Shown here: positions 6,451-39,807 of the stretch, piece by piece
Position numbering within the stretch: the stretch's first letter is position 1
How the letters are laid out: every line of letters begins with the position of its first letter
From: Candidatus Bathyarchaeota archaeon
Lineage (GTDB): Archaea > Thermoproteota > Bathyarchaeia > RBG-16-48-13 > JAGMEO01
Assembly (NCBI GenBank): GCA_030602965.1
Contig: JAUVYS010000002.1
Span: 1 to 46,433 of the forward strand
DNA length: 46,433 nucleotides
Direction: 5' to 3'
Notes under the pieces: model-generated
Told to the model about the DNA's origin: nothing
Databases searched by the model: none
Seen by the model: only the letters and a program-made list of their open reading frames with translations
Made by a program: the position numbers and the translations under genes

Positions 6451-6735
6451 ATGGTTTTTCTTTATGAAGATTATAAACCACAACAAATCAAATCTCCTAT
6501 TTCAGATACGAGAATAGGGAGAGAACGAATAAAAAACAATCAGATAACTGGAGAAGTTCCCTATCATCCTCCTTTCCGTCCTGTTGGTCCACACTCAGTA
6601 ATAGAGGAAATCGGCGGCGGTGTCGACAGTAAACACCGTCTTGGAAGAACTCAATATTGGCCTACAGAACATAAAAGCCCGGGTATAGTTGACAGTCAAT
6701 GGTATCCTTGGCAGACAACAATTGAAGAAGTTTGA
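6451..6735 (+). CDS. hypothetical protein carrying the N-terminal MVFLYE tag (94 aa)
   Basis: Starts MVFLYEDYKPQ. The ATG at 6451 fits the TATA spacing better than the track start at 6439. Confidence 0.65.
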   Translation: MVFLYEDYKPQQIKSPISDTRIGRERIKNNQITGEVPYHPPFRPVGPHSVIEEIGGGVDSKHRLGRTQYWPTEHKSPGIVDSQWYPWQTTIEEV

Positions 6736-6795
6736 TACACACCAACTAGAAATATTTAAAAAGAAATATTGAATAATAAAAAAAGATGATATAAA

Positions 6796-7326
6796 ATGGT
6801 AGATTCAATAATCAGTATTATGATACGAGATCCAGTACATCCTTGTGGGCCTTACGACCGCACAGGACACTCATTTCGAGTAGATATTTTTAATTGTGAC
6901 TTCACCCCCCTTTTTTATAAGGGTATAACCTACAACAATTTCCCGCTTAACGTAAAGGGAAAGAAAGGAGGTTCCATACATAGACAAATCAGAGTTCCTC
7001 CCGGTTTTTATTTGATTCGTGGTCATGCCAGATGCCATAATGTTGTTACAGAGTGGGCTATGGTTCAGGTAGGATGCGGCACAACAGTATGCGTAAACTT
7101 GTTGCCTACATCAATCCATTACTGCCTATTGAGAACCGTAGGAGCCATATTAGCCACTGATCAAGTGAAAAAAATTTACGCTAAAGAAGCAGACGAAGTA
7201 GTTCGAGCAATCAATAAACTACTAAAAAGAATGCCTAGAACCTTGATGCCTGCACCACCTACAGCCAAACAACTCGAAGAACTAGAAAACGAAGAGAAAG
7301 AAGAGGAGAAAAAAGAAGCTAGCTAA
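6796..7326 (+). CDS. Cys-rich hypothetical protein with an E/K-rich tail (176 aa)
   Basis: ORF with TATTTAAA 35 nt upstream and a hairpin plus T5 after the stop. Confidence 0.65.
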   Translation: MVDSIISIMIRDPVHPCGPYDRTGHSFRVDIFNCDFTPLFYKGITYNNFPLNVKGKKGGSIHRQIRVPPGFYLIRGHARCHNVVTEWAMVQVGCGTTVCVNLLPTSIHYCLLRTVGAILATDQVKKIYAKEADEVVRAINKLLKRMPRTLMPAPPTAKQLEELENEEKEEEKKEAS

Positions 7327-7345
7327 GTAGCTAGCTACCCTTTTT
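7318..7345. terminator. hairpin plus T-run between convergent genes
   Basis: GCTAGCTA/TAGCTAGC palindrome at 7318-7335, followed by TACCCTTTTT. Confidence 0.5.
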
Positions 7346-7367
7346 ATTCTTAGATTTAAGAACCTAC

Positions 7368-8234
7368 TTAAACTTTGAATATGCCTGTATCAACCCATTC
7401 ATGTTTTATGATCGTCCACCAATCGATTGCTAAACCTGTTAAAACATACTCGTAAGGTAACCATCCATAACCGTTATCACCCCAACCCGTACCCCAAGAA
7501 TTTCTGATGAGTAACGCTCCAACAGTATTTTTTCTGCAAATATTATTCTTAATCTGCCTATCATTGTTGTATCCAACAGCCACCACAGCATGACCTCCAA
7601 GAATCCTTTCTCCACGACATGGATAAGGAATCTTCCCATCTCCTGCTGCTTGTCTGATTGAACTGTAAACTGTAAATCCGAACATGGATGGCAGGCCAGC
7701 CGCTAAATTCGTTTTGATTCGAGCTAACAAAATGTCTTTAGGTGTAAGTGAAGGATCTAACCTCACATACTTAAGTGGTTGATAATTTTGTGCAAAAGAA
7801 TAACAAAACGCGGAAGGCTCATCATCAAATTTACTGATGACATACGGCATATATTCCTCCGGAGGAACACCGAATAATCTCATTGCTCCCATAGTTGTAC
7901 GGAGGTATGCTCCAGTGTCTCCAGTCCAATGAAGCAATTTCCGTGTTACCTTGTAAAGGAAGAGTCTGGATGCATCAATATGTCTTCCAAAAGCCTTCCG
8001 TTCATAATATTCAACTAAAGATATACCAGCGTTTGCTGTGCAGGAACCGAGGGCACCTTGATCCTCAATCGGTGGACACCACGCACGGAGATCCACAGCA
8101 GTTGGAAGACCAACTTTTAAAGGCTCAACAATCCCCATTGTTTCTATCATAGATTTAACTTTTTCATGTTCCAGTGTGTAATCTCTAAAATCAGGTAAAT
8201 CAGGAAGCCATCCCATACTTCTTACTTCACTCAT
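7368..8234 (-). CDS. papain-family (C1A) cysteine peptidase
   Basis: QGALGSC (catalytic Cys), GGHAVVAVGY (His) and NSWGTGWGDNGYGW (Asn-Ser-Trp) appear in the canonical order. Confidence 0.88.
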   Translation of the reverse strand: MSEVRSMGWLPDLPDFRDYTLEHEKVKSMIETMGIVEPLKVGLPTAVDLRAWCPPIEDQGALGSCTANAGISLVEYYERKAFGRHIDASRLFLYKVTRKLLHWTGDTGAYLRTTMGAMRLFGVPPEEYMPYVISKFDDEPSAFCYSFAQNYQPLKYVRLDPSLTPKDILLARIKTNLAAGLPSMFGFTVYSSIRQAAGDGKIPYPCRGERILGGHAVVAVGYNNDRQIKNNICRKNTVGALLIRNSWGTGWGDNGYGWLPYEYVLTGLAIDWWTIIKHEWVDTGIFKV

Positions 8235-8301
8235 CTTTTCAACCTCACTAAAAATTATCTATTATCAATTTAAATTTTGTGTGTCCTCGCGTTTCCGTGA
8301 G

Positions 8302-8496
8302 TTATTTTTTAAAGACGACGATTCTTATTACTTGAGCCAAGATCATAAAGGCAACCGCGAACCCAGCTACGATAACAATTATGATTAAACTACCACTCGT
8401 TGATTCCCATACGTCCGTAACAGGAATAACTGCAATAATTAGGTTTAAGAAGAGAAATATGAATCCCATTACTAACAAGATCTTAGACAGCTTCAT
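8302..8496 (-). CDS. small membrane protein (64 aa from MKLSKILL, 2 TM)
   Basis: Two hydrophobic helices. The ATG at 8496 avoids overlap with the upstream gene. Confidence 0.55.
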   Translation of the reverse strand: MKLSKILLVMGFIFLFLNLIIAVIPVTDVWESTSGSLIIIVIVAGFAVAFMILAQVIRIVVFKK

Positions 8497-8510
8497 TTGA
8501 CGCGCGATAC

Positions 8511-9026
8511 CTAAAGAATGATGCTCATAGTTTCCATTGTTCTCGGTAAAACTACCCACGCGCTTAACCATGCATTTACATGTGGTTTCACTGGATCTGC
8601 TTCTGACACAATTTCAAAACTGAAAGTATCTTTAAAAATGGGTTGAGGATACATAGCAGCCGTTTTTTCTTCTTTTAATGCTACAAACTTGGTGAACCAA
8701 TCGGAAAGATATCTGATGAAACAGCCTTCATACCACTTCATAGAAACAAAATCCACGTCTGTACTGAACATGCCGACAGGATAAAACACTACATTACTCT
8801 TTAAAGTTACACAGTGTTCCCCTACAGGCATTTCATAAGTAGGCCAACCGAAATGAACAGGTTGAAAACCTACAACTGACATACGAATTCTCTGTTCTTC
8901 TTCAATCTTAGCTGCTTCTGCTATTGCATCTTCATATCTACTTAACGCACGAACATTATTATTCATGAAATTCTGAAGAAGATTTTTAGTGCTTAATTCC
9001 TCAGTTTCAGGATATAAAAAAACCAT
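8511..9026 (-). CDS. hypothetical protein with an MVFLYP N-terminus; paralog of 26422..26970
   Basis: Shares RYxDA..EAA.I..E.RI+M....PVH.G.P and the C-terminal VLPRTM motif with 26422..26970. Confidence 0.7.
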   Translation of the reverse strand: MVFLYPETEELSTKNLLQNFMNNNVRALSRYEDAIAEAAKIEEEQRIRMSVVGFQPVHFGWPTYEMPVGEHCVTLKSNVVFYPVGMFSTDVDFVSMKWYEGCFIRYLSDWFTKFVALKEEKTAAMYPQPIFKDTFSFEIVSEADPVKPHVNAWLSAWVVLPRTMETMSIIL

Positions 9027-9090
9027 AATTACTATTTAGTTTTTAAATTAATAAGAGTTTGCAGATACCTATGCTAATACGCGAGAATCT

Positions 9091-12721: not shown

Positions 12722-12737
12722 CCAATCACTTTCTAGC

Positions 12738-13153: not shown

Positions 13154-13163
13154 GAACCTTCAC

Positions 13164-13184: not shown

Positions 13185-13196
13185 TTATTTTAGCAT

Positions 13197-13733
13197 GTGG
13201 CTGGTTTGGATAAAGATAAGATTTCGTTGGCTAAACTGTTTCGATCCAAAAAAAAATTGAATACTCCCCTGCAACGGGCATTATACAAACCGTCACTAAT
13301 AGAATTATTAACAGCGGAACCGGAAGAGGACGGGGTGATCGTGGAGGATGTTGCAGTCGTCCTTAAACCTTATGGAAAAACTAAAAGTATGATAGCACGC
13401 GTTTTTCCTTTGATTGAAATCCAAAAATTTAAGCCGTTGATCGACAGAAAAAAAATAACTGGATTAAAAATAACAGTGAAGGATGGTGCGTTAGCATGTT
13501 TAGTCGCTTCGGGCTGTGGAACTGTAAGTCAAATAACAGGTTTTTTACGCGCAGTCTCAGTACATTACCCTGAATTTAAAGATGTGAAAACCGAGACGGT
13601 TGGCCAGGCTCTCAGCAGATTAGTTGCAGGCAGAATCATTCAACCTTCTTCAGATTATGTGTCTGGAGAAAAAGTGCAATGCTTATCAGTGCCTAAACAA
13701 AAAGAATTATTATACAGAGAACGATGGTGGTAA
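13197..13733 (+). CDS. putative DNA-binding protein with two winged-helix-like segments (178 aa, GTG start)
   Basis: LIELLTAEPEEDGVIVEDVAVVL and TVSQITGFLR...TVGQALSRLVAGRII segments. Confidence 0.5.
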   Translation: MAGLDKDKISLAKLFRSKKKLNTPLQRALYKPSLIELLTAEPEEDGVIVEDVAVVLKPYGKTKSMIARVFPLIEIQKFKPLIDRKKITGLKITVKDGALACLVASGCGTVSQITGFLRAVSVHYPEFKDVKTETVGQALSRLVAGRIIQPSSDYVSGEKVQCLSVPKQKELLYRERWW

Positions 13734-13734
13734 C

Positions 13735-15243
13735 GTGCCACTGACAAAAGAACAGTTAAGATTGATTTGGGATCGTTGGAGAACAAAGTATCCCTGGGAT
13801 GTTCTTAAACGTACTTTTCCTTTTCCTCAAAACCTTATTTCATTATATGATTGGTGGACAGGAATCTTACATTCAAGAGGAGTAGACATTGACGAATATG
13901 ATTTTGAAGCTTATCTTGATCCAACTTTAACAAGAAAAGAACATGAACAACTCCTTGAAACATTGATTACTGCTCCTCCAGGAGAAGAAATGTATGAAGC
14001 ATGGGCGCAAGAAGCCATAAATAAAATACAGGATGAAGCTAGAGAAGCCGGATTATTAGAACCGTACGAAAAAAAAATTAGAAGTCTTGAACGAACAGAA
14101 AAAAAATCCAAACGAAAATATGAGAAAGCGAAAGAATTAGAAGATGAATTACGAAGAGAACTCCGAGAAAAAGAGGGTGAGGTTGAACGATTAAAACTAA
14201 CTAAAAAAGTCACTGTGAAATTCACACGTGACTATCCTAGTTTTGTCGGGTATGATTTAGAAACTTATGGTCCCTTCAAAACAGGTGAATTAACAAGTCT
14301 TCCAGAAGCAAACGCCGCCATCTTAATTGAACAAAAAGTGGCTTCTATTTGGGGTATACCTAAAATTGAAAAAGTTTTACCGGTAATGCCTCCAAGAGAA
14401 TTGACAAAAGAAGAGAAAAAGAGGCTTCAAGACGTTTTTAACGCTGCTCTTTTTGATGGTTTAGGCCGGATACCTGCAAGCACTATTTCTAAGTTCAGGG
14501 TTGAACTCGAAAAAATTAAGGATCTGTCTTATGTTGAAGCAGAGAAACGTATTTTAGAGTTAGCACAAGAAATTGTTGGAATGATTATAGCCACTAAAAA
14601 AATTGTGCCTGCCAGACCGCCTAGAAAAGTTGAAGTTTATCGTCCACCACGAGAAGAAGATGAACTCTACGCTATGCCTCATGTTTCACCTGCCGAACCT
14701 CCTGAATGGCCGTTAGAACCGCCTGTAATGAAGTTTCCACGAAGCCCCTCAAGTCGAGAGGAACAAGCATTTTGGAAAGCTTTTCAGTATAAACTTCAAA
14801 CGCAGGGATTTAATCCTTGGGAGTGGCAACGAGAATTTAACAATTATATTTCTAAGATGCAGTTCCGTAGCTGGAAAGCTCTTGTTAAAGCCTACGAATT
14901 GTTTGTTGAAACCATTAAGGAAAAGAAAGAGCTTCCACCGTTATGGCAGTGGAGCGGGGTTCCACCTCCAAGCTTAAACTATTTGCCAAAAGAATTAGAA
15001 AAGAAAAGAGCAGGAGCCATAATTCACTACACATCAGTATTGATTAGAAACGCTAGACGTGCGCGTGAACCTTATCAACCAACCTTAGAAGAACTGAGAG
15101 AGGATCTCGGTGATATTATGGGTATAACTAATGTAACATTTGATGAAATAAAAACTGCTTTAATGGAAGCTTACAAAGAAAAAGACGTAAGACTAATAGG
15201 GATTACACTGGAAGAGTTAAACAATTTTCTGGAAGCAACCTAA
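13735..15243 (+). CDS. large hypothetical protein (about 502 aa; E/K coiled-coil plus Pro-rich segments)
   Basis: The GTG at 13735 follows GGTGG and the upstream stop. Track start 13624 or the ATG at 13657 are alternatives. Confidence 0.65.
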   Translation: MPLTKEQLRLIWDRWRTKYPWDVLKRTFPFPQNLISLYDWWTGILHSRGVDIDEYDFEAYLDPTLTRKEHEQLLETLITAPPGEEMYEAWAQEAINKIQDEAREAGLLEPYEKKIRSLERTEKKSKRKYEKAKELEDELRRELREKEGEVERLKLTKKVTVKFTRDYPSFVGYDLETYGPFKTGELTSLPEANAAILIEQKVASIWGIPKIEKVLPVMPPRELTKEEKKRLQDVFNAALFDGLGRIPASTISKFRVELEKIKDLSYVEAEKRILELAQEIVGMIIATKKIVPARPPRKVEVYRPPREEDELYAMPHVSPAEPPEWPLEPPVMKFPRSPSSREEQAFWKAFQYKLQTQGFNPWEWQREFNNYISKMQFRSWKALVKAYELFVETIKEKKELPPLWQWSGVPPPSLNYLPKELEKKRAGAIIHYTSVLIRNARRAREPYQPTLEELREDLGDIMGITNVTFDEIKTALMEAYKEKDVRLIGITLEELNNFLEAT

Positions 15244-17629: not shown

Positions 17630-18676
17630 TTACCCCCTCCTTTCATATAGAAAAGGTATATCATCTAAAAAAGATTTATCATAGGAATAGGTTGAAAACG
17701 AAGTAACAAGATAAGTTAATCCTGCTACTCCTAAACCTACTAGCAATGAAACAACAGGTTTTTTTGTAGCAACAAGTGTGACTGTTCCCGTTCCTATTCC
17801 TAAACCTAATACTATTGGATATACCGTTGGAAGTGTGGGTGTGGCAAGTTTCTGGTACATCGAGTAAGCGGGTTTCACGTTAAGATCCACGGTTACCAAT
17901 CCCATGTAATCACTGTAGTTTGTTGATTCTTCAGGTAAAGCATAGTCTTGGAATGTGTACCAAAAAATTTTTTGTACACTGTAATCTTTAAGAAATTGGT
18001 CAAGATCCTTCAAGTATTCTGCTTGTCCTTCTAAACCAAAAGTTAAACTGCTTACTCCTGCTTCTGTGATCCATAACGGTTTTGGCGAAGTAGTATTTAT
18101 TATGTTTTGTAAATAGTTGCCGTATTCTTCTTCAGCAAGATAAATATGGTATGATGCTATGTCACAATAGGATGCTGCACCGAGGTTCCAACAGTCTTGA
18201 ACAAGTTGATCTGAGCCTGGTTGAGGTGACATTGCGCTGAACACTATTGGTTTTCCGGTTGGATTCATTACTTCATAAATTTTTTGTAGCATATCCACGA
18301 TGTGCTGTGCAGAACCATCTTGGTACCCTAATTGAAATTGTGGTATATTCGGTTCATTCCATGCTTCCCATGCATCAATGTCTGGAAAAACATTTTTTGT
18401 GTTTATTAACGCTGTTTCCCAATCGTTGAGGGTGAAAGTAGGTGATTCATTCACAATGTATCTATCTAAGATTCCAAGTATTTTCATTCCGTTTGCATGA
18501 GCGTTTGTTATGACCGAGTTCATTCGGTCAATTAACCATTGTACCGTCGGTGAAAGAATTTCCACTCGCACCCATTCACATCCTAACGCCTTGATAAGGC
18601 TCCAATAAGCCGCTTCGTCATAGTATGGTTTTTCTATATCCCACGTATGTATTTGTACTCCTTTCATTTTTTTCAC
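17630..18676 (-). CDS. clan GH-A (TIM-barrel, GH5/GH39-like) glycoside hydrolase with C-terminal TM anchors
   Basis: WEAWNEPN (acid/base Glu) and PLWITEAGV (nucleophile Glu) at typical spacing. Two hydrophobic helices near the C-terminus. Confidence 0.75.
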   Translation of the reverse strand: MKKMKGVQIHTWDIEKPYYDEAAYWSLIKALGCEWVRVEILSPTVQWLIDRMNSVITNAHANGMKILGILDRYIVNESPTFTLNDWETALINTKNVFPDIDAWEAWNEPNIPQFQLGYQDGSAQHIVDMLQKIYEVMNPTGKPIVFSAMSPQPGSDQLVQDCWNLGAASYCDIASYHIYLAEEEYGNYLQNIINTTSPKPLWITEAGVSSLTFGLEGQAEYLKDLDQFLKDYSVQKIFWYTFQDYALPEESTNYSDYMGLVTVDLNVKPAYSMYQKLATPTLPTVYPIVLGLGIGTGTVTLVATKKPVVSLLVGLGVAGLTYLVTSFSTYSYDKSFLDDIPFLYERRG

Positions 18677-18726
18677 TTTTTACATATTTCTTATTTCTTA
18701 TTTATTTCTTACTTATTTTTTCTTAT

Positions 18727-19551
18727 CTATCTGTCTTGTTTCACTCCCACATAATCAAGATCTAAGATTTTGTTTGCGTTCTCTAATGTTCCAAAATCAA
18801 AAAATACTTCCAGATAATCTCCCGCGTCATCAGGAATATTAGTTGTTATATCGTTTGTTAAAACCCCGTCAATATAAAAGTCGATTTGAGTCAGTCTAGT
18901 AGCATCCACCCTAAAAATGTGATAGTCCGTGTCTAAAGCGACTCCAGTATCTTCACTTGTTTGTACTCCACCATCCCTGCATCGAGCCAGCCAATTAGCG
19001 TCTTGAAACGATACAAACCCTATATAATCATCACCATCAAACCGTAGAAGCATGAAAATGAACTGGTCAGTGTCAGATTGACCTAGCTTCGCCTTAACTT
19101 CAAACACCACCCGTTTTGAAACATGTAGGCTTCTAATAGTCCCCCAATCAAAATTTAATCCATCACCGTCTACTCCACCAGTTTGCAGACGAGCTATGCC
19201 TCCTATTTGACTGTCCACAACTGCTACTGATCCACCGTAAAGATTTGTTCCCCATTCATCTTTTATTTGGTCGCCTATAAAATCATCTATAAATAGAAGT
19301 TGGTCTTGAAGAGAATCCAAACATCTTGCTTCGTGACTTCTGTAAGCATCGTTTTCCCCTCCTATGAGATCAACACTTCTCCACTTGGAGTTCAGGTACT
19401 GATATAATCTGTATCCTACCTGCGTCGAGTTGTAGACTAAGACGGTTCGACCTTCATATACTGCTCCAGTCGGATCAGCCCAAATACCTGCCTGTGTTTG
19501 AACTGAAATATATGTTCCTGCACCCACGGAAGCTCTTGTTCTCGCAGCCAT
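18727..19551 (-). CDS. ConA-like/LamG-like jelly-roll protein (274 aa from MAARTRAS)
   Basis: Beta-rich, with a DDFIGD...W...G...FYIDGV...LDLDYVGV pattern. The ATG lies 1 nt after the upstream stop. Confidence 0.5.
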   Translation of the reverse strand: MAARTRASVGAGTYISVQTQAGIWADPTGAVYEGRTVLVYNSTQVGYRLYQYLNSKWRSVDLIGGENDAYRSHEARCLDSLQDQLLFIDDFIGDQIKDEWGTNLYGGSVAVVDSQIGGIARLQTGGVDGDGLNFDWGTIRSLHVSKRVVFEVKAKLGQSDTDQFIFMLLRFDGDDYIGFVSFQDANWLARCRDGGVQTSEDTGVALDTDYHIFRVDATRLTQIDFYIDGVLTNDITTNIPDDAGDYLEVFFDFGTLENANKILDLDYVGVKQDR

Positions 19552-19552: not shown

Positions 19553-21112
19553 TTAGTTGACACCCACATAAGTTATTATGTCATTCAACGTGCCGATGCA
19601 CCATATTCTATCTGTATTATCTATATCATAACTGACGGTGCAACCAGGTCTCAGAGCGTAGCCAGTGCCCGCAACCACAGTATTATCATTCCCTACGTAA
19701 ACCACAGCGTTACCCAAAGTTCTGTCAGAATCATTCTCTATCGTCACGCTTTTACAAGCATTCGCTGGAAATTGTTGTGCAGCCCCACCCATTGTAACTT
19801 GTCCATGAATTATAGATGTTGGTGATGCTTCTTCGGTTTCAAGAGGTTTACCTTCCTCCTGGTTAATCATCATTACAAAGCTGCGTTTGACTACTGCTTC
19901 ATCCACGAGAAAATTGGTGAGTGTCGTTCCTGCAGCGCTTGTTATCACGTATATGGCAACGTAAGTTACCGCTGATAAGTTGGCTCCAACACCTATCACC
20001 CCGTCTACTTCACTCATTAAACGATGGTAATGATGCCACTGGTCGTATTGAATATCGGCAAGAGGAATTTCCCAGTAAAACAGGTTGCCCGCATCTGTTC
20101 CCAACGCAATATACAGGTTAGTTATTGTGCCGCCTACAGGCGTTGGAACATACATGAAGCACATAACTTTTGCGTGAGTGCTATACACACTTAAATCTAA
20201 AGCCGCTGGAGGAACAAAAGATACTCCACCTAAAACTCCACCTGCAACTTTATCCCATTCAACACTGTTAGTACCCTGTCCTCTATGATCAGTGTTTAAA
20301 GCAAGATTCAATGTGCTGCCTTCAAGTGAAACACCGGCAAGAGAGTCGAAACCTGCCAGTAACACTTTAGCTGGAGCTACAGGTATGCTGCCATCAGGAT
20401 AAACTTCACCATCATCTGTAAAATCTGTTAATTGAACTTTTCCAACTTGACGGGTTGGTCGATCAATTACGTCTACTGCTCCTCCAGCTAAAACATCCGA
20501 GAAACTGAAAAGGTAGAATATACAGTCTTGAGTTGCAGACGCCGCCCAAGCAGGAGGTGTCAATGAAACACAGAAGTTTCCTGCATGAGTTGGAGTTGAA
20601 GAGTCTATTCCTACTTCAACCTGTCCCGCAACAGAAGCAGATAGCCAGATAACGATAACATAGTCTTGTTGAGGTTCAAGAGTGTATGGTGTGGTGAAAT
20701 GAAAATTCACTAGCTCAATAGTTAATCCTAAAGATGGCTCTGTGCCTAACACGTTATCGCTTGTAGCTAACACTCCGCCCGCTATGTCTGGAACAGCGTC
20801 TACACCAACCACTGTGCCTGCTAAAACCCTGTAAAGCCTTGCTTGAAGAATATTTCCCGCAACAGCGAAGGCTGCGTTTCTTTGAAGATGAAACGATACG
20901 TCTGTCAACCGTAACAGTGCAATGGGTGAGGTGAAGGCTTGACCGCATGCCTCGTTAACCGCGTTTAAAATTGTGCTTGTATCCTGGTTTGCTTTGCCGT
21001 AGCTTTCAATAAGGTGGCTTAACAAGTTTCCCCAATTGATAGGTAACGGGTTAGCTACTCCTACATTGGCTCCGTCAATCCATAAATCTACTTTTTGTCT
21101 TGGTTCAGCCAA
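19553..21112 (-). CDS. large beta-rich structural-type protein (519 aa, TTG start)
   Basis: Longest ORF of the module. Rich in G, A, T and V with no TM segments. Confidence 0.7.
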   Translation of the reverse strand: MAEPRQKVDLWIDGANVGVANPLPINWGNLLSHLIESYGKANQDTSTILNAVNEACGQAFTSPIALLRLTDVSFHLQRNAAFAVAGNILQARLYRVLAGTVVGVDAVPDIAGGVLATSDNVLGTEPSLGLTIELVNFHFTTPYTLEPQQDYVIVIWLSASVAGQVEVGIDSSTPTHAGNFCVSLTPPAWAASATQDCIFYLFSFSDVLAGGAVDVIDRPTRQVGKVQLTDFTDDGEVYPDGSIPVAPAKVLLAGFDSLAGVSLEGSTLNLALNTDHRGQGTNSVEWDKVAGGVLGGVSFVPPAALDLSVYSTHAKVMCFMYVPTPVGGTITNLYIALGTDAGNLFYWEIPLADIQYDQWHHYHRLMSEVDGVIGVGANLSAVTYVAIYVITSAAGTTLTNFLVDEAVVKRSFVMMINQEEGKPLETEEASPTSIIHGQVTMGGAAQQFPANACKSVTIENDSDRTLGNAVVYVGNDNTVVAGTGYALRPGCTVSYDIDNTDRIWCIGTLNDIITYVGVN

Positions 21113-21359
21113 TTACTACACCTAATTCAAATTCGAGTACGGTAAGCTCTACTTCTTCTTCATGTTTCTCTATTTTATTTCCATGCATAATTGACTGTTT
21201 CACTTTAACTTTAACTTTCTTCTTTTTATGTTTCGGTTTTTTCAGTTTCTTAACCTTCACTCTTTTCGGCTTCTTTTCAGGCTTTTCAGGCTTCTCCTCT
21301 TCTTCTTCTTCAGGCTCCTCTTCTTCTTCTTTCGGTTTCTTCTCTTTTTCTTTGTTCAT
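21105..21359 (-). CDS. charge-block K/E-rich protein (84 aa from MNKEKEK)
   Basis: An acidic block (EEEEEPEEEEEE) is followed by a basic block (KKPKRVKVKKLKKPKHKKKKVKVKVK). Confidence 0.55.
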   Translation of the reverse strand: MNKEKEKKPKEEEEEPEEEEEEKPEKPEKKPKRVKVKKLKKPKHKKKKVKVKVKQSIMHGNKIEKHEEEVELTVLEFELGVVIG

Positions 21360-21360
21360 G

Positions 21361-21837
21361 TTAGTAACCTGATGTTTCAACTAATCCAGCTAAGTTCACG
21401 TTTAAATCAAACGTGGGGTTTCCAGAGAAGACAGCGAAAAGAATATAGTAATATTTGCCTTCTATAGTTGGGATGCCCTTGGTGAATTTTAGTTTTACAA
21501 CTCCATACCCAAATTTTTGTGCCATTATTTGTTCCAGAACTACGCCGGATTCATCATATCTAGCGAATCCTCCATAAACAAGAGCATTAATGAGTGTAGC
21601 GAATTGTATCTCATAAAAATGAAAAGGTAATGCTGAAGCGGGAACTAAACCTGCTAATGCTACGCCATAGATATTAAAGAAAGGCAGAGTTGGAACACCA
21701 GTATATGCAGCGCTATACATTACTCTGCCTTGATCGCTTCGGATGAGGTCGCTTGTGCCATACTCCACATTTATAGAGTAGTCTGGTAAGCCGACGCCTA
21801 ACGGTGTAACACTAAAAGTTTTTTCGATAACGACCAA
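21361..21837 (-). CDS. beta-rich protein, paralog A (158 aa, TTG start, MVVIEKTF); candidate capsid-type protein
   Basis: The first about 25 aa and about 40 nt are nearly identical to 21847..22311. AGGTG SD is present. Confidence 0.65.
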   Translation of the reverse strand: MVVIEKTFSVTPLGVGLPDYSINVEYGTSDLIRSDQGRVMYSAAYTGVPTLPFFNIYGVALAGLVPASALPFHFYEIQFATLINALVYGGFARYDESGVVLEQIMAQKFGYGVVKLKFTKGIPTIEGKYYYILFAVFSGNPTFDLNVNLAGLVETSGY

Positions 21838-23991: not shown

Positions 23992-24291
23992 TTATCTTAG
24001 TCGCTTACGGATCACTCTTTCTCCTCGTCTAGCCGCGGCTTCTGCGAGTTCTCGACCTAAAGCTGTGAAAATAAAGAAGCCTATTACTAATCCAACAGCC
24101 ATTCCTGGAATGAATCGATCGAAAGATGATGTTTGAAAAGATTGTTTTTCAAGCCGTAATTGAAATGGTTGTTTCCCAAGCCGTAACTGAAATGATTGCT
24201 TCCCAAGCCGTAGTGTTTTGCTAACACGTTCGCCAAGTCGTTCGCCAAGTGTTTTTTCTTCAAATTCTACTTCTTCATATAAGAAGACCAT
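23992..24291 (-). CDS. tagged (MVFLYEEVEF) single-pass membrane protein with internal 9-aa repeats
   Basis: LRLGKQSFQ x3, LGER x2, and the TM segment IPGMAVGLVIGFFIFTALG. Confidence 0.7.
   Translation of the reverse strand: MVFLYEEVEFEEKTLGERLGERVSKTLRLGKQSFQLRLGKQPFQLRLEKQSFQTSSFDRFIPGMAVGLVIGFFIFTALGRELAEAAARRGERVIRKRLR
24134..24214 (-). repeat. three in-frame 27-nt tandem repeats; a 12-nt x2 repeat lies at 24227-24250
   Basis: Units at 24134-24160, 24161-24187 and 24188-24214 encode LRLGKQSFQ-type units. Confidence 0.85.
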
Positions 24292-24426: not shown

Positions 24427-25035
24427 TCACCTCTCCTTCACAGCCTTAATTACAATCGCTGTTCCTATAAGACCCGCAACGATTAATACTCCGTATATAA
24501 TTTCTTTTGGAATTTTCGCTAGGGCTTCTGGAACTGCTTTGATCCAAGATCCTATTTCTCGTGCATTCTCTAAAAGAAAATATCCTGCGATAAATATGCC
24601 TACTACTATAATAACAGCCTTGATTATGCTAATTATAGCAGCAGAGACAACAAATGAATGAACATCTACGTCAGGTATATCAGTCTTAAAAAATGTAGTT
24701 GTTGTAACATAACACCGATAAGCGTTTTCGTATCGTTCATAATCATAATATAGCCATTCCCAACGAAAAGATACATTTATCGAGATTATTTGTAATGCAC
24801 GGCCTTCCTTCAGAAATTCTGCGGTTAATTTCTCGAATACTGCTGCCTTCATTCTTTCTGTAATCTCTGGTTCATGCCAATTTGGACTTACAGAGGGTGG
24901 AGAATACCAAAGTGCAGTCTCAAGAAGCCACTTCCATTCATACTCAAACAATTTTTGAAGTGACCGAACAACTTGAGGTTTAAGAGATGAAATAGTTTTG
25001 TCTTTAAATTCTAATTCTTCATATAACAAAACCAT
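24427..25035 (-). CDS. tagged (MVLLYEELEF) membrane protein, 2 C-terminal TM
   Basis: The ATG at 25035 follows GGAG. TM segments are VVSAAIISIIKAVIIVVGIFIAGYFLL and IIYGVLIVAGLIGTAIVI. Confidence 0.7.
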   Translation of the reverse strand: MVLLYEELEFKDKTISSLKPQVVRSLQKLFEYEWKWLLETALWYSPPSVSPNWHEPEITERMKAAVFEKLTAEFLKEGRALQIISINVSFRWEWLYYDYERYENAYRCYVTTTTFFKTDIPDVDVHSFVVSAAIISIIKAVIIVVGIFIAGYFLLENAREIGSWIKAVPEALAKIPKEIIYGVLIVAGLIGTAIVIKAVKER

Positions 25036-25095: not shown

Positions 25096-25953
25096 TTAAC
25101 TCTTGAGATGTAATTCAAATTGGTTACAAACCGTTTCTGCTTCACAATCATTAGGTATAGGATCTCCCCAACCTTCAATTCCAAAAGCTATTTCTTCTAT
25201 TGTCCATCCATCACCTATAGGCGGTGCTTCTCCCCGATTACTTCCTCCAATATTTGTTTCTTGATTAATAGGAATGTAACTTTCACCTTCTGTTAAATTG
25301 TGATGCCAAAAAAATGTTTGTGCACCTTTCTTGTATCTACAATCAACATAAATGTTACAAGCTCCCAATTTCTTCATTATCTCATAATCAAGAATAATGT
25401 AGCCTTCAACGGCTGGAATAGAATTTAAAAGCTGTTTCAAATGGCAAAGAGCCACTCTTCCATAAATTGTTTGATGTTCCTTCAAATAAAGACTGACACG
25501 ATCATCCAATCCCTGTATTTTATAATGCAGAACAGTTCCAGAACCGCCGCCGGCCCAACTCCAAGATGCTCCTGTGAAATGCCAATCAGCCACATCTTTT
25601 TCTAGACTTGAATCAAAACCTTCTTCAACCCAACGCCCTACATTAAGACTGGAATTCCTGTTAACAATAACATATTCTGATGGTGCAGCAGCAGTAATCA
25701 TCGGCAACGAAATCAAAGAAGCTAACCCTAAACTTCCAACCGACAAAAGAACAGGATTAATAGTCTCTGGTTTCTTAGAATCATATATACCTAAAGAAAT
25801 AATTGTAGCTGCCGCGCTACCAATTAAAAAAAGTTTCTGCCAAGGAAAACTAGGTTTTTCAAGAGGGGGAGGTCCATTATCCCCTTTTATTTTTATCGAG
25901 AAAGGTCTAACATCAAACCTTGTTTCCTCCTGTAAATCATAAAGAAATGGCAT
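25096..25953 (-). CDS. tagged (MPFLYDLQEE) membrane protein (285 aa from the ATG at 25953)
   Basis: The tag and the RFDVRPFSI motif are shared with 25967..26368. Two TM segments precede a large C-terminal domain. Confidence 0.65.
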   Translation of the reverse strand: MPFLYDLQEETRFDVRPFSIKIKGDNGPPPLEKPSFPWQKLFLIGSAAATIISLGIYDSKKPETINPVLLSVGSLGLASLISLPMITAAAPSEYVIVNRNSSLNVGRWVEEGFDSSLEKDVADWHFTGASWSWAGGGSGTVLHYKIQGLDDRVSLYLKEHQTIYGRVALCHLKQLLNSIPAVEGYIILDYEIMKKLGACNIYVDCRYKKGAQTFFWHHNLTEGESYIPINQETNIGGSNRGEAPPIGDGWTIEEIAFGIEGWGDPIPNDCEAETVCNQFELHLKS

Positions 25954-25966: not shown

Positions 25967-26368
25967 CTATGGAGATCTATTTGGAGGGCTTTCGATCCAC
26001 ACTTCACCACTTATGTTTTTAGCGGGCATTATAAAGAACATGTCATAATAGTCAACTACGCCTGGATCTAAAGATGAAAAAGGCCATTCATAAGCGTCTA
26101 CTCCATCCGCCGCTAATTGTGGTTGAAACTCTGCTCTGACGTTTCCAGTGTTTCTGATGTCACCATAAACCTTTACGCTTTGTCCTGCTTCGGCTTCAGA
26201 AGGATAATTTATAGATACAAACTCTACACTGATTTGTGGTTGAAATCTAAGATTGATATTAAAACTTCTAACATCGTATCTTGCAGGGGAAAACTTGCGA
26301 GAAGCAAACCGTAAACTATATTTCTTTTGAGGTATTTTTTCAAATACACTCTCATATAGTAAAACCAT
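25967..26368 (-). CDS. tagged (MVLLYESVF) protein with a CARDB/Ig-like beta domain
   Basis: AGQSVKVYGDIRNTGNVRAEF is typical of CARDB-like domains. Confidence 0.6.
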   Translation of the reverse strand: MVLLYESVFEKIPQKKYSLRFASRKFSPARYDVRSFNINLRFQPQISVEFVSINYPSEAEAGQSVKVYGDIRNTGNVRAEFQPQLAADGVDAYEWPFSSLDPGVVDYYDMFFIMPAKNISGEVWIESPPNRSP

Positions 26369-26421: not shown

Positions 26422-26970
26422 TTAGACGTAGATTTTGGATTCAGCCATTGTTCGTGGCAATACTATGAAGGCTAACAGCCATCCAGGTGCAGGGCTTGAT
26501 GTAGAATGCACATAAAACCTGAAGGTTTCTCCGCCTTTGAAAACGTAATGGTCTAGATTGCCTTTGTATGCGCCTTGTCGTTCTAGGAAGAAGCATACTG
26601 GCCCAGTGAACCATTCACCGATCCAATCTATTCCACCACCACTCCACCATCGCATATAGTCAAAGTCCATTGTTGGCAAACCGAAACTGTCATCAACACC
26701 CCAATTCATTATTCCCCAAGGGAAAAATGCAGTGTTCTGCAGCAATGTTTTCTGTGTGTTTCCTTGCGGTAGATTATATGCTAATGCAGTTGGTAAAGGT
26801 AATCCGAGATGAACAGGTTTATGGCTTTCGATACGCATTTTAATGCGTTCACGATCGGCGATAGCAGCAGCTTCTAGTTTAGCATCTCTATATCTCATAG
26901 ACATTATCGTATAAAATTCATCTCTTGAAGTAGGAGTAAAAACTGGTCCTTGAATTATCGCGACCATCAT
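26422..26970 (-). CDS. hypothetical protein, paralog of 8511..9026 (182 aa)
   Basis: Shared internal motifs and the C-terminal VLPRTM motif. Confidence 0.7.
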   Translation of the reverse strand: MMVAIIQGPVFTPTSRDEFYTIMSMRYRDAKLEAAAIADRERIKMRIESHKPVHLGLPLPTALAYNLPQGNTQKTLLQNTAFFPWGIMNWGVDDSFGLPTMDFDYMRWWSGGGIDWIGEWFTGPVCFFLERQGAYKGNLDHYVFKGGETFRFYVHSTSSPAPGWLLAFIVLPRTMAESKIYV

Positions 26971-26982: not shown

Positions 26983-27405
26983 CTAAATTTCCTCGACTAA
27001 TTCTTGTTCAGGAAACTCGATTGGTGTAGGATACTGAAGCCCTTCTTTTAATGGAAGTTTTCTAGGTGTTCCAGATGATCTTCTTCTGAATTCATAGGTT
27101 CCACGTTTTCTTAACTCGTCCAGTATGATGATACTTGTGCCTGTTGCAAGTCCTGCACCGCCCATTGCACCTAGCAACGCTCTGTTTTCTGGATCTGTTG
27201 TGATTTTACCTGTTTTGTGGCTGTAATATGCAAGTCCTATACCTAGGATTCCTTGAATTAATCCTATAATTCCACTGATTTTAATTCCTGATTTAGCTAC
27301 GGCTGGATCGCCTAAAACTCGTCCGCCTTTCAAAGCATATTCAGATACTAATGGAACGCCTACGCCTAAAACCGCGCCTCCCGCAGTCTTTAATACCACG
27401 GACAT
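26983..27405 (-). CDS. glycine-rich hydrophobic protein (140 aa); candidate membrane or virion protein
   Basis: GGAVLGVGVP..., SGIIGLIQGILGIGLAYY and GAMGGAGLATGTSIIIL segments. First gene after a TATA box. Confidence 0.65.
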   Translation of the reverse strand: MSVVLKTAGGAVLGVGVPLVSEYALKGGRVLGDPAVAKSGIKISGIIGLIQGILGIGLAYYSHKTGKITTDPENRALLGAMGGAGLATGTSIIILDELRKRGTYEFRRRSSGTPRKLPLKEGLQYPTPIEFPEQELVEEI

Positions 27406-27522: not shown

Positions 27523-28284
27523 TCAAGTTTTCATCCCCCATTTCTTCACGGTTTTTGTTTCAATAAATTCTAGAATGATGTTTTCCATTAAGATGCCGAG
27601 AAGGGAGATGCAGAAGAGGGTGCCAAGCATTCCCGCCGCGTTTAATTGAAATCGATTAACGTAGATAAGCCAGCCTAACCCTCCTTTACCGCCTACTGCA
27701 CCGAACACTAATTCGGCGGCGACTACGCTTCTCCAAGCGACTCCCCAAGCACTTCTGAAACCGGTGATAAGATGGGGAAGAGAGGCAGGTAATAATATGT
27801 ATCTGACTAAAGGTAATCCTTGAAGACCATAATTTTTTCCAACTTCCACTGTGATTCCTCTAAGAGTGTTCAGTCCATTCATGATGTTAAGGGTGTAGGG
27901 ACATAATGACCCGAAAATAGTTATGAAGATGATAGCGTTCTCTCCTAGGCCGAACCATAAAATAGCGAAGGGAAGCATTGAAATGGCTGGAACTGGATTA
28001 AATATTGAAATTATCGCTTCTACTACAGGTCTGGTTCTTTGTGAAAGAGCAGATAAGGTTCCAAGGATGAAACTTAAACAACTGCTAATTGAAAGTCCTA
28101 TGAATAATAACTTGAAAGTGTAAGTGATAGCTTCAAAAAGCCTGGTGTAATGAGTTATCATATAGATGATTGTGTCTGTTATTGATGGAAAAATAAAGGG
28201 GGAGAAGATACGTATTCGCGCAATTGTTTCCCAAAGGGTTAATGCTGAGAAAACGAAAAAGATTTTGATATGTGACTTTTTCAT
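27523..28284 (-). CDS. ABC transporter permease, NitT/TauT (sulfonate/nitrate/taurine) family
   Basis: Six TM segments. NPVPAISMLPFAILWFGLGENAIIFITIFGSLCPYTLN resembles the SsuC/TauC signature region. Confidence 0.8.
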   Translation of the reverse strand: MKKSHIKIFFVFSALTLWETIARIRIFSPFIFPSITDTIIYMITHYTRLFEAITYTFKLLFIGLSISSCLSFILGTLSALSQRTRPVVEAIISIFNPVPAISMLPFAILWFGLGENAIIFITIFGSLCPYTLNIMNGLNTLRGITVEVGKNYGLQGLPLVRYILLPASLPHLITGFRSAWGVAWRSVVAAELVFGAVGGKGGLGWLIYVNRFQLNAAGMLGTLFCISLLGILMENIILEFIETKTVKKWGMKT

Positions 28285-29327
28285 TTTCCTATCAATCCTT
28301 TTGTTTCTGCGAATAGCATATCTTCAAACGTTAATGTTTTTTGTATCAAGTCTAGTTTGTGCATTATTGCTGCTATGTCTTCTACTGCAGATAAACCGAA
28401 AGTTGGATTCCACATTAAGCATGGTTGCCCCAAACGATTCTTAAGGAGCCATAGATCCCAAGCTTCATCTGGTTCGTATTCATAGACTAATCCTATAATT
28501 TTTGATGCTTCCTGCGGATTGTTAATGATGTATTCGGTGGCTTTGAACCACGCTGTCATAACAGCAGATAATAATTCTGGATGTTCTTCACAGAATTCAA
28601 CTCGACCGATAAGAGAGCTTCCTGGAAGAGGAGTACCCCAAATTTCAGTGTCACAAGTAACCATGTGATATTTCGATTTTGTTTCACCTTCAGGATTCAC
28701 TTCAACCGCATTAGCATATTGAATTGTGTAAGGAACTCCAGTGAAAGCACAATCTATTTGTTTTTCTTCCATCAATTGAAAAGCGTCTGGGTGAGTGAAG
28801 AATACACTCACAGCATCAGCTTCTTCTTTTGTTCTACCTAAGTCACCGAAGGCTTTGATTAATCCTGCTTGTTCAATGCTTCCAAGTTTTACAACTCCAA
28901 CTTTGTCTCCACGTTTAATGTCGGCTATTGATTGGATATCCTCTCTCCAAGTCCAAAGTTCATGTTCTTTGCTTCCCATACTTAACAAGATTTTAGTGCC
29001 TATTTGTTGGTCTACTCCTTTAATGGCGGGCGCGATCCCCATAGATCCGAACTCTAAGCTTCCCGCTACAAAAGCCTCATTGATTGCTGTTCCTCCACTG
29101 ATTTTTTGAAATATGCCTATTGCTGTGCCATTTGAGTATTTTTGTAATAGATTAAAGTGATCTATGATAATGTGTTGTCCATAATGAAAACCGAATTGAT
29201 ACGCGAAACGTACTTCGGTAACAGATATTTCAGGAACATAGGGATTAGACATTGAATACAAGAAAACACTAGACAAAATAATTAGAGTTAAAGCTAAAAC
29301 AACTGATACAACTTTATATTTATTCAT
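28281..29327 (-). CDS. ABC transporter substrate-binding protein, NMT1/THI5-SsuA-like
   Basis: N-terminal TM/signal anchor. The ATG at 29327 overlaps the ATPase stop (ATGA). Placed in an operon with the permease and ATPase. Confidence 0.7.
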   Translation of the reverse strand: MNKYKVVSVVLALTLIILSSVFLYSMSNPYVPEISVTEVRFAYQFGFHYGQHIIIDHFNLLQKYSNGTAIGIFQKISGGTAINEAFVAGSLEFGSMGIAPAIKGVDQQIGTKILLSMGSKEHELWTWREDIQSIADIKRGDKVGVVKLGSIEQAGLIKAFGDLGRTKEEADAVSVFFTHPDAFQLMEEKQIDCAFTGVPYTIQYANAVEVNPEGETKSKYHMVTCDTEIWGTPLPGSSLIGRVEFCEEHPELLSAVMTAWFKATEYIINNPQEASKIIGLVYEYEPDEAWDLWLLKNRLGQPCLMWNPTFGLSAVEDIAAIMHKLDLIQKTLTFEDMLFAETKGLIGK

Positions 29328-30046
29328 TGTTTCACCTCCATTTCCTTTAATACTGCTGTCCAATACTTACCAAAGTCTGCGCTGGCAACGTTTCTTGGTC
29401 TAGGTAATTCTATGTCAAATATTGATTGGATTCTGCCTTTTTTAGATAAGACAACCACTCTATCGGCAAGAAATATGGATTCTCGAATGTTATGTGTTAC
29501 AAAGAGTATGGTTATCTTAATTGTTTGCCAGATCTGTACCAGTTCAGACTGTAACCTTCTTCGAGTTTGCGCGTCAAGGCTTCCGAACGGTTCATCCATC
29601 AATAATATGGACGGGTTCATTACAAGCGCGCGTGCAATCGCCGTTCTCTGTTTCATGCCTCCACTCAATTCATGAGGGTATTTGTGTCTTGCATCTGTTA
29701 AACCAACAAGTTCTAACATTTCAAGAGGTTTTCTAGATGATTTATTTCCTGATAGTTTTGGGCCGAAAGCAATATTTTCAATTGTGGTTTTCCAAGGAAG
29801 CAATTGATTTAATTCTTGAAATACCATAAATCTCGTTGGTGACGGTGCAATTATAGGCTTATCATCATGTAATACTGTGCCAGTGTAGGATTCAAAACCT
29901 CCCACCACCCGTAATAAAGTGGTTTTTCCACAACCCGAAAAACCGACTATACAAACAAAATTTCCATCATCTATATTTAGATTGATGTTGTCAAGAACTT
30001 TGTTTGAATCAAAACTTTTTGAAACGTTTCTAAGAGTTAAACCCAC
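29324..30046 (-). CDS. ABC transporter ATP-binding protein (TauB/SsuB-like)
   Basis: Walker A GFSGCGKTT, signature LSGGMKQR, Walker B LLMDEPFGSLD. Confidence 0.9.
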   Translation of the reverse strand: MGLTLRNVSKSFDSNKVLDNINLNIDDGNFVCIVGFSGCGKTTLLRVVGGFESYTGTVLHDDKPIIAPSPTRFMVFQELNQLLPWKTTIENIAFGPKLSGNKSSRKPLEMLELVGLTDARHKYPHELSGGMKQRTAIARALVMNPSILLMDEPFGSLDAQTRRRLQSELVQIWQTIKITILFVTHNIRESIFLADRVVVLSKKGRIQSIFDIELPRPRNVASADFGKYWTAVLKEMEVKQ

Positions 30047-31864: not shown

Positions 31865-31869
31865 ACATT

Positions 31870-37173: not shown

Positions 37174-37179
37174 ATCGAA

Positions 37180-38520: not shown

Positions 38521-39160
38521 TTTGTTGTCCTCTAATTAAAATTTGTAATTGTGATGCCACGTGCTCTTGTACGGTTGGATTCACTTCATAACCGAGTGCG
38601 CGTAACTGAATAAGTTTATTTATAAACTCTGTGTAGATTCTGAAAGCGGCTAATCGAGTGAATATTGGTTGAGTGGATTCAACTAGGATGCTTGAGAGAG
38701 CGCGTAAACTATTCATTTCTTGCACCATGTTTTCTATTTGATCACCATATTCTTCATAGGTTGTAATTGCTGTTGTGACATATTCTTCCATGCTCATTCC
38801 ATGTGTAGCCGCGTTCATGTAATATTCACTGATTATTTTTTTACCGATTTTTCCAATATCAGCAAAAAATAGTTTGTAAGCATCATCACCTATCTTTATC
38901 TCTGGAGCTTTAGTACCTTTAGAGGCGGGAACTCCTCTCGTTTTCCGCCAACCACTGAATGAAGTGTTTAAGCGTTTATATGTCGGTTGATCATAACCGA
39001 AGCCTTCCATCACTAAAGTTTTCAGTTGGAAGCCTGGTTGATCCCGTACTGAAACTATCCACTCAAATAATGTATCTCTTTCTTGTTGATTCAATCTTCT
39101 AGTTATACGCGCGGTAATGATAGCTTGAATCTCTTCAGGAACTTCATCTGGAGAAATCAT
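38513..39160 (-). CDS. hypothetical protein (215 aa)
   Basis: ORF coupled to its neighbours. Confidence 0.65.
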   Translation of the reverse strand: MISPDEVPEEIQAIITARITRRLNQQERDTLFEWIVSVRDQPGFQLKTLVMEGFGYDQPTYKRLNTSFSGWRKTRGVPASKGTKAPEIKIGDDAYKLFFADIGKIGKKIISEYYMNAATHGMSMEEYVTTAITTYEEYGDQIENMVQEMNSLRALSSILVESTQPIFTRLAAFRIYTEFINKLIQLRALGYEVNPTVQEHVASQLQILIRGQQNV

Positions 39161-39306
39161 TAGTCTTCCACATTTTTTTGTTTCATTCCTAAGTGATTTC
39201 GTAAAATCATCTCTATATAAAAGCTTAAAGCTGATTTTCTATTCCCGAATAATTCACGCGCTTTAGCTTCAGCTTCTTTTTTCACTGTTGTTGTAAGAGT
39301 GAACAT
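39160..39306 (-). CDS. ribbon-helix-helix (CopG/Arc-type) DNA-binding protein, absent from the ORF track
   Basis: MFTLTTTVKKEAEAKARELFGNRKSALSFYIEMILRNHL. TAATG coupling to the downstream gene. An upstream TTG at 39336 is an alternative start. Confidence 0.6.
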   Translation of the reverse strand: MFTLTTTVKKEAEAKARELFGNRKSALSFYIEMILRNHLGMKQKNVED

Positions 39307-39336
39307 AAACTTTGAGGTTTCTTCAGTATCAACCAA

Positions 39337-39361
39337 TTACTATACCTAAAGATTACTTAAG
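39337..39361. promoter_or_regulatory. 25-nt repeat copy B (imperfect palindrome TTACTTAAGGTA) in a divergent intergenic region
   Basis: TTACTATACCTAAAGATTACTTAAG. On the minus strand, TATAGTAA lies 30 nt upstream of the RHH ATG. Confidence 0.6.
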
Positions 39362-39450
39362 GTATCATAAGTCATATAAGGATACTGTATAGAAAAAAAA
39401 TGAAGCAAAGTTTTTATGGCTAAAAAAACCAATATTAATTCGTTGGTAAT

Positions 39451-39807
39451 ATGCCGATTCTTTTTGAAGAGCATGAGTTTCATACAATTGACATTTACGA
39501 GTTTCAATGGGGAGAATTAGTAACCTTAGAACAAGTAAAAAACGCTTTTGAAAATCAAGGTGGCGTAGTGATTGCTCATGAAGGCTATCCAGAATGGACT
39601 AAAGCCGTGATATTGAGTGAGGAAAACAGTCTTTCTTGGGCGGATGCAGAAGCAATAGCTAACGCTTTAGCTGTTAAGTACCCGGGTGGATTATGGACTT
39701 GGATGGTTCACAGCGATAAATTATATGGATACACTAAGAGCCTATGGACAATAAGCGGAGTCGCTATTGCAGGAGTCACAGGATTAGCTATAGGATTCAT
39801 GTTGTAA
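39451..39807 (+). CDS. tagged (MPILFEEHEF) protein with a C-terminal TM anchor
   Basis: N-terminal tag variant. C-terminal WTISGVAIAGVTGLAIGFML. TTTTTATG box 32 nt upstream. Confidence 0.65.
   Translation: MPILFEEHEFHTIDIYEFQWGELVTLEQVKNAFENQGGVVIAHEGYPEWTKAVILSEENSLSWADAEAIANALAVKYPGGLWTWMVHSDKLYGYTKSLWTISGVAIAGVTGLAIGFML

Follow-up and report, generated by a model that had tools for sequence, protein, structure and literature searches.

Why do otherwise dissimilar proteins of a single genetic element begin with nearly the same few residues? The 46,433-bp metagenomic contig JAUVYS010000002.1, which we analyzed in full and refer to as the window, contains seven open reading frames (ORFs) that open with M-(V/P)-(F/L/I)-L-(Y/F)-(E/D/P). 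An earlier note on this DNA had reported these N-terminal tags, and all of their coordinates and strands are confirmed here (Table 1). The gene content indicates that the contig belongs to an archaeal mobile element. We find that more than 70 related metagenomic contigs conserve the tag, that it is also used at C-termini, and that its genes cluster around the gene for a predicted caspase-fold protease, which we tentatively propose as its reader.

A terminal motif in the window and its relatives

Given the window's own amino-acid composition and its 94 genes, chance would produce 0.42 copies of the pattern [VP][FLI]L[YF][EDP] at any position and 0.003 at residue 2. Called genes contain eight copies, in addition to the one at 39451, and every one of these is terminal. 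The N-terminal count corresponds to a Poisson P of ~3e-22, and 2000 shuffles of the residues yielded at most 3 N-terminal matches. The tag in the window is real and far beyond chance. Re-annotation left its starts in place: only 1-19 open codons precede each of the seven, and the starts at 6451 and 9026 were also chosen when genes were called independently on a second assembly of this DNA. An eighth DNA-level match, MVFLYPTY, opens a 46-aa ORF (18625-18765, + strand) that lies antisense to the 5' end of a glycoside hydrolase gene and extends across a T-rich intergenic repeat; it probably arose by chance from the T-richness.

The tag had been described as an N-terminal feature. Near-identical copies, however, are present at two extreme C-termini in the window, as ...DIPFLYERRG in the glycoside hydrolase and ...DIPILYPE in a methyltransferase, and C-terminal copies occur in relatives as well. 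Three looser N-terminal relatives proposed earlier do not belong to the set. Those at 21837 and 22311 are TTG-start paralogs of each other that have the whole N-terminus in common and are not tags. The third, at 26970, is an untagged paralog of the carrier that starts at 9026; together with its relatives it has a conserved N-terminus of its own, x-QGPVF-x-PT, which may serve as another docking peptide, distinct from the tag.

Scanning metagenome contigs with a profile recovered 66 related loci, the longest of their contigs reaching ~44 kb, and further, more divergent relatives were reached through homologs of the protease described below. The tag is conserved in these loci, where 105 non-redundant copies stand at N-termini; their logo is M-[P63/V11/S,T,A,G,C]-[L51/I35/F15]-L101-[Y93/F12]-[E96/D5/P4]-[S/E/T] and their consensus M-P-[LI]-L-Y-E-[SET]. 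Overall, the motif can be summarized as M-[P/V/S]-[L/I/F]-L-Y-[E/D]-[S/E/T] at N-termini and as [D/E]-x-P-[L/I/F]-L-[Y/F]-[P/E]-E plus 0-5 residues at C-termini. The N-terminal regions of the related loci contain 122 forward motifs, versus 5, 8, and 1 for reversed or permuted versions. The strict pattern P[FLIV]LY[EP] is found 68 times at N-termini, 12 times at C-termini, and 4 times internally.

The conservation is at the protein level, as the earlier note had concluded from the window. The tags draw on all six codons for Leu, all four for Pro, and both for Tyr and for Glu, and the initiation codon itself varies among the 105 copies (ATG 73, ACG 14, GTG 12, CTG 3, TTG 3), in every case preceded by a GGAGGTG-type ribosome-binding site. 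This diversity of codons and start codons points to selection on the peptide rather than on DNA or RNA. The ACG and CTG starts have their ribosome-binding site 5-8 nt upstream and stop codons just upstream, and they appear to represent non-canonical initiation in an archaeal element.

Conservation is also closely confined to the motif. Orthologs of the carrier at 8511-9026 (44-73% identity) retain the tag as MPILYES, MPLLYES, MSILLYES, or MPPFLYPE, while the ~20 residues that follow vary freely. At the other terminus, the tag is conserved in a family of transmembrane (TM)-anchored methyltransferases (...EELNDIP-LLYPE plus 0-3 residues) and in a family of ~110-aa membrane proteins (...YPWKECP-LLYPE plus 0-5 residues, one member stopping at ...LLYP). 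In one family the motif occupies residues 8-12, after a conserved xFDR[F/Y]P prefix, and in divergent relatives the tag of the best-conserved carrier has shrunk to M-LYEE or xLLLYDE. We rejected the internal ILYP[EKD]G of a 446-aa family as a tag; it sits in a ribbon-helix-helix-like helix, varies to Lys, and is missing in the window.

The carriers belong to separate families by clustering, in agreement with their earlier description as otherwise dissimilar. Tag status is family-specific, with at least eight tagged families among the clustered related loci in addition to the window-specific carriers. Carriers are short, from 49 to 285 aa, and TM segments are predicted in 73 of the 105 non-redundant N-terminal carriers of the related loci. 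The last TM lies within 25 aa of the C-terminus in 56 of the 105, a tail-anchored arrangement, and no carrier has a predicted signal peptide. The earliest predicted TM in real carriers begins at residue 11 or later, and most begin at residue 23 or later. The tag, which is acidic, five residues long, and without an h-region, is therefore not a Sec, Tat, lipoprotein, or pilin signal, as already noted from the window. Positive-inside analysis of single-TM carriers was ambiguous (30 N-out, 16 N-in, 9 ties), so our assignment of topology relies on the absence of signal peptides and the tail-anchored layout, which together suggest that the tagged termini are cytoplasmic.

Pfam and PHROGs returned nothing informative on all ten proposed carriers. 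The 171-aa carrier at 8511-9026 is the tagged paralog in a core family with two copies per element. Its AlphaFold model has a predicted local distance difference test score (pLDDT) of 75, residues 1-16, including the tag, are disordered (pLDDT <50), and Foldseek gave only weak jelly-roll, tumor necrosis factor-like, or nucleoplasmin-like matches. Profile-profile comparison found the two ~175-aa core families to be unrelated. For the carrier at 25967-26368, previously called CARDB-like, an immunoglobulin (Ig)-like fold is plausible, and the match to CARDB itself (PF07705; E = 0.0062) scores 17.2 bits, below the Pfam cut-off of 22.7. The best-conserved carrier family is that of 23992-24291, which lies directly upstream of the protease gene in the window and even in divergent relatives; a 27-bp repeat present three times at 24133-24212 encodes the LGKQSFQLR-type repeats between its tag and its TM.

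The glycoside hydrolase lacks a signal peptide, and its nearest cellular-type homologs, one of which has a signal peptide, stop right after the catalytic domain. Since these homologs lack the TM-plus-tag extension that the window's copy has gained, the tag behaves as a portable add-on module. The methyltransferase, whose listed ORF begins at 39744 and whose likely true start is 39807, keeps its C-terminal tag in orthologs. The stop codon of the tail-anchored carrier at 39451-39807 overlaps the likely methyltransferase ATG (TAATG, 39804-39809), an arrangement that suggests coupled translation of the two proteins, one N-tagged and the other C-tagged.

Table 1. Tagged genes, core genes, and apparent non-canonical tag starts (positions in the window unless a relative's locus is given)
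Feature	Coordinates	Strand	Remarks
Carrier, 94 aa	6451-6735	+	N-terminal tag MVFLYED (codons 6451-6471); soluble; specific to the window
Carrier, 171 aa	8511-9026	-	N-terminal tag MVFLYPE; disordered linker, long helix, jelly-roll-like beta-sandwich
Glycoside hydrolase (Glyco_hydro_cc)	17630-18676	-	Two C-terminal TMs, then C-terminal tag (IPFLYE 17642-17659)
Core gene, 179 aa	22723-23262		Follows the protease gene
Core gene, 214 aa	23326-23970	-	Candidate caspase/CHAT-fold (clan CD) cysteine protease; invariant His62-Gly63, Cys108
Carrier, 99 aa (array)	23992-24291	-	N-terminal tag MVFLYEE (opens MVFLYEEVEF); LGKQSFQLR repeats, one TM, basic tail
Carrier, 202 aa (array)	24427-25035	-	N-terminal tag MVLLYEE; ~140-aa soluble domain, two TM-like stretches near C-terminus
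Carrier, 285 aa (array)	25096-25953	-	N-terminal tag MPFLYDL; two TM-like stretches near N-terminal third, large C-terminal domain
Carrier, 133 aa (array)	25967-26368	-	N-terminal tag MVLLYES, then Ig-like domain; weak CARDB
Untagged paralog of 8511-9026	26422-26970	-	N-terminus MMVAIIQGPVF; first gene of conserved array
Carrier, 118 aa	39451-39807	+	N-terminal tag MPILFEE; TM is extreme C-terminus (tail-anchored)
S-adenosylmethionine (SAM) methyltransferase	39807-40304	+	N-terminal TM anchor; ends ...ELNDIPILYPE (PILYPE 40284-40301)
Apparent non-canonical tag start, relative	L007:9705-9740		
Apparent non-canonical tag start, relative	L004:5060-5095		
Apparent non-canonical tag start, relative	L058:12190-12225		
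Apparent non-canonical tag start, relative	L064:4105-4140		

A candidate reader and the alternatives

Four of the tag genes are part of a conserved array that, in the window, runs from a membrane protein gene (26983-27405) through the untagged jelly-roll paralog and the four carriers to the genes for the 214-aa and 179-aa core proteins. Sequence searches against Pfam and the PDB gave no match for the 214-aa protein. Its AlphaFold model (pLDDT 96) has as its top Foldseek match the CHAT protease 8tl0 of SAVED-CHAT (E = 3e-8, probability 1.0), followed by caspase-11/4/1, gingipain R, and separase. The protein contains the motifs LNGHGG and VYLFTCN, with H62, G63, and C108 invariant in 29 homologs, and shows the clan CD signature of His-Gly behind one hydrophobic strand and Cys behind the next. 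As modeled, it adopts a caspase-hemoglobinase alpha/beta fold with a catalytic dyad, and it is a candidate cysteine protease. PDB sequence-profile searches with the protease family, the 179-aa core family, and the 519-aa and 280-aa proteins gave nothing significant.

The association of this gene with the tag extends throughout the relatives. Of 111 tag genes in 37 loci, 96 begin within the interval from 2 kb before to 1 kb after the start of the protease gene (-2 kb to +1 kb), an enrichment of ~28-fold per kb, and 107 of the 111 are on the same strand. In relatives, genes for a SAP-domain protein and a LAGLIDADG endonuclease adjoin the protease gene. The wider family of ~215-aa proteins comprises 876 representatives at 50% identity (E <=1e-3), without a Pfam match; a distant homolog at L076:1464-2108 adjoins Mrr_cat and AbiEii genes. 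The window also encodes a papain-family (Peptidase_C1) cysteine protease at 7368-8234, between the carriers at 6451 and 9026. We rejected it as a general reader of the tag; it is window-specific and missing from all relatives.

The reading that we favor, without quite calling it probable, is that the P-hydrophobic-L-Y-E box is a portable terminal motif read by an element-encoded partner, most likely the caspase-fold protease, in a dock-and-trim arrangement. The motif would sit on a flexible terminus that stays cytoplasmic and would mark the fast-evolving membrane and soluble proteins of a morphogenesis module for one common partner encoded by the element. The caspase-fold protease from the same array would dock on the motif and would probably trim the N-terminal copies, with hydrophobic-L-Y-E/D as P4-P1, an acidic P1, and the small residue that follows (S/T) as P1'. 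Clan CD enzymes read short P4-P1 motifs with strict P1 specificity, and some are transpeptidases. The near-invariant E/D after the Tyr and the small S/T next to it fit an acid-specific caspase-type site. The protease gene inside the tag array and the C-terminally tagged enzymes together sharpen the three functional options of the earlier note (assembly tag, protease signal, docking strand), and the latter favor a docking or targeting role. The data show the motif, its place at termini, its conservation as protein, the clustering of its genes with the protease gene, and the protease fold with its dyad; we infer that the protease is the reader, that cleavage takes place and at this site, and that the module builds a virion.

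Several observations weigh against the dock-and-trim arrangement. The link between tag and protease comes from gene clustering, which may just reflect a late operon. Several C-terminal copies stop exactly at ...LLYPE, and one at ...LLYP, so that no scissile bond follows the Glu, which argues for binding over cleavage; the residues left after the putative cleavage are not conserved either. The protease carries an invariant Asp11 immediately behind its first strand, a position that contributes S1-pocket residues in other clan CD enzymes, and this might indicate a basic rather than an acidic P1 specificity. The distant homolog at L076 stands alone in a cellular-looking context and has no tags. 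Finally, weak jelly-roll-like fold matches and the relatives' HerA-type ATPase give the element's viral nature weak support.

A strong rival, if less likely than the reading above, dispenses with proteolysis altogether. The tag would act purely in docking or cargo loading, entering a groove of a structural hub (capsid, jelly-roll, scaffold, or membrane-associated matrix) as a strand or hydrophobic peg and recruiting membrane proteins, spikes, and enzymes to the particle. It would account for a tag that serves at either terminus, for C-terminal copies that end exactly at the motif, for the tagging of enzymes, and for conservation that is limited to the tag and does not reach the following residues; the "fiber-like" layout of the tagged core protein (tail, helix, beta-sandwich) is consistent with it as well. 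However, it leaves the protease gene within the array unexplained, and no hub was identified: Pfam and PHROGs recognized no prohead protease, portal, or HK97 capsid, and PDB profile searches likewise recognized no capsid hallmarks.

We consider it improbable that the tag mimics a host short linear motif and recruits a cytosolic machine such as a Get3/ArsA-like insertion factor, a chaperone, the proteasome/Cdc48, or membrane-remodeling proteins. The cytosolic, disordered position of the tag, the many tail-anchored carriers, and the shortness of the motif, which is usual for host-directed viral motifs, would all suit such a role, but soluble enzymes and Ig-like proteins are tagged too. The tag also co-varies with this clade only; a DNA-pattern scan of IMG/VR with the tag variant MP-x-L-Y-E-[S/T]-T-D gave 3 chance-level matches, none at ORF starts. 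It does not match the PIP box, HbYX, MIM, or late-domain motifs, and its logo has neither the Gln nor the aromatic pair of the PIP box, Q-x-x-[LIM]-x-x-[FY]-[FY]. We found no evidence that the motif is a general N-terminus of host proteins, although no host has been assigned to the element.

Modification of the tag Tyr (glycosylation, methylation, sulfation, or phosphorylation) by the element's own sugar- or methyl-transferases seems more improbable still. Tyr is present in 93 of 105 copies with acidic residues next to it, and genes for glycosyltransferase, methyltransferase, epimerase, and radical-SAM proteins flank the array in all relatives; yet ~11% of copies, including that at 39451, have Phe (12 of 105) and thus lose the modifiable hydroxyl, a methyltransferase is itself tagged, and no precedent is known. 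We give almost no credence to a nucleic-acid signal (a promoter or TATA-like box, a downstream box, or a recombination site) or to plain chance: the tag DNA is T/A-rich in an AT-rich window and superficially TATA-like (for example, TTTTTATATGAA), but the codon diversity rules out TATA-box, downstream-box, and DNA-repeat explanations, the same peptide is encoded in GC-rich relatives, reading frame and spacing from the start codon do not vary, the upstream DNA of the window's tag genes is dissimilar between copies, C-terminal copies exist, and the Poisson P (~1e-22) and the 15- to 100-fold lower counts of reversed and permuted controls speak against chance.

A bolder version of the dock-and-trim reading, which we regard as unlikely, is that the hexapeptide, on tail-anchored and soluble proteins, and a minimal caspase-fold enzyme that reads it form a new archaeal-virus sorting system. 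Trimming would license incorporation into a virus-built membrane or particle, or the enzyme would act as a sortase-like transpeptidase and tether its substrates. Such a system would constitute a new class of virion-targeting signal and a new class of maturation protease. More generally, should the tag prove to be a signal for processing or for targeting to virions or membranes, sequence alone would suffice to list the structural and host-interaction proteins in a group of uncultivated archaeal viruses whose genes are nearly all "hypothetical". A caspase-fold enzyme would join the small set of viral morphogenesis proteases, a compact six-residue tag and its cognate reader could be tested as a tool, and the system would show how fast-evolving surface and membrane proteins are exchanged around one constant docking handle.

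The element and its other genes

The contig has 35-42% GC and most of its genes on the minus strand; neither tRNA genes nor terminal repeats were found in it. Its genes are Shine-Dalgarno-led and include a Gins51 C-terminal domain protein, ParA, and many glycosyl- and methyl-transferases. The relatives have a HerA/FtsK-type ATPase; its best match among the PHROGs carries the annotation of a large terminase subunit. The element likely makes a virion. Searches with four proteins or profiles did not find the clade in IMG/VR, in 185,579 GTDB representative genomes, or in a phage collection.

About nine tandem copies of AAGGTAT (also readable as 14- and 28-nt units) at 42541-42605 lie directly upstream of the ParA gene (42607-43362) and look like a centromere or an iteron-like partition site. 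Gins51 C-terminal domain is the sole domain match of two large proteins, one in the window (13624-15243, 539 aa) and one in a relative (L019:1577-3955, 792 aa), which may be replication-fork adaptors of the element. In the structural module, a 91-aa protein (21105-21380) consists almost entirely of Glu/Lys runs, with an acidic block ahead of a basic one of KKxK type, and may condense nucleic acid. A complete ATP-binding cassette (ABC) importer operon (27523-30046; NMT1-like binding protein, permease, and ATPase) separates the morphogenesis array from the glycosyltransferase cluster; it is missing from all relatives and is therefore probably host-derived cargo.

Comparison with known systems

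A close parallel in principle is the capsid targeting sequence (CTS) of phage T4, an N-terminal peptide of ~10 residues on unrelated proteins (internal proteins, Alt) that targets them to the particle and is removed by gp21 after L/I-x-E. The tag is likewise an extreme N-terminal peptide common to unrelated proteins (7 carriers in the window, 105 in relatives), and its L-Y-E fits the L/I-x-E pattern at the sequence level. However, gp21 is an assemblin-type serine protease, unlike the caspase-fold candidate described here; T4 uses its sequence at the N-terminus alone, whereas the carriers here, most of them membrane proteins, are tagged at either end; and HK97-type capsid, portal, and scaffold are not recognized in this element.

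Poxviruses and adenoviruses offer further analogies. In poxviruses, A17 has short AG-X sites at both termini; its N-terminal peptide docks the jelly-roll scaffold D13, and trimming by the I7 cysteine protease releases the scaffold. Short terminal sites on viral membrane proteins and processing by a cysteine protease are what we propose here, although I7 belongs to clan CE rather than clan CD, acts on one main substrate rather than an array, and reads an unrelated motif. In adenoviruses, many virion precursors contain consensus sites for the viral protease, and the fiber tail FNPVYPY docks on the penton base. The shared elements would be a short near-terminal motif on dissimilar virion proteins with one viral cysteine protease as its reader, and a terminal Pro/Tyr-containing peptide that anchors variable fibers to a common platform. 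The motifs and protease clans differ, the adenovirus sites lie 10-50 residues inside, and no double jelly-roll capsid was identified here.

Encapsulin and microcompartment peptides are short C- or N-terminal peptides on unrelated enzymes that dock onto a shell and are portable. The tag resembles them as a terminal peptide on enzymes that is portable between cargo types; those peptides, by contrast, are uncleaved and have a Gly/Ser/Leu-rich or amphipathic-helix consensus, and the carriers here are mostly membrane proteins. Neither an encapsulin nor a shell gene was detected, and Pfam found no encapsulin domain, although most core proteins have no assigned fold. Sortase and archaeosortase signals, in which a short motif precedes a TM helix and a basic tail, differ in layout, as the C-terminal tags come after the TMs as the last residues, and Pfam gave no sortase-like match.

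For the enzyme itself, the predicted caspase-hemoglobinase fold and the His-Gly and Cys of the 214-aa protein place it beside caspases, CHAT proteases, separase, gingipain, and legumain/GPI8, from which it differs as a minimal standalone domain without a Pfam match and with putative activity and specificity. We know of no clan CD enzyme described as the morphogenesis protease of a prokaryotic virus. Literature searches with the motif strings and sample accessions gave no match, and a keyword search for archaeal viruses and caspase-like proteins returned nothing that describes this system. Overall, the principle of a terminal peptide that several proteins share for targeting or processing is known; what is new is the motif, its occurrence at either terminus of proteins that are mostly tail-anchored, the candidate caspase-fold partner, and the clade of elements that encodes them.

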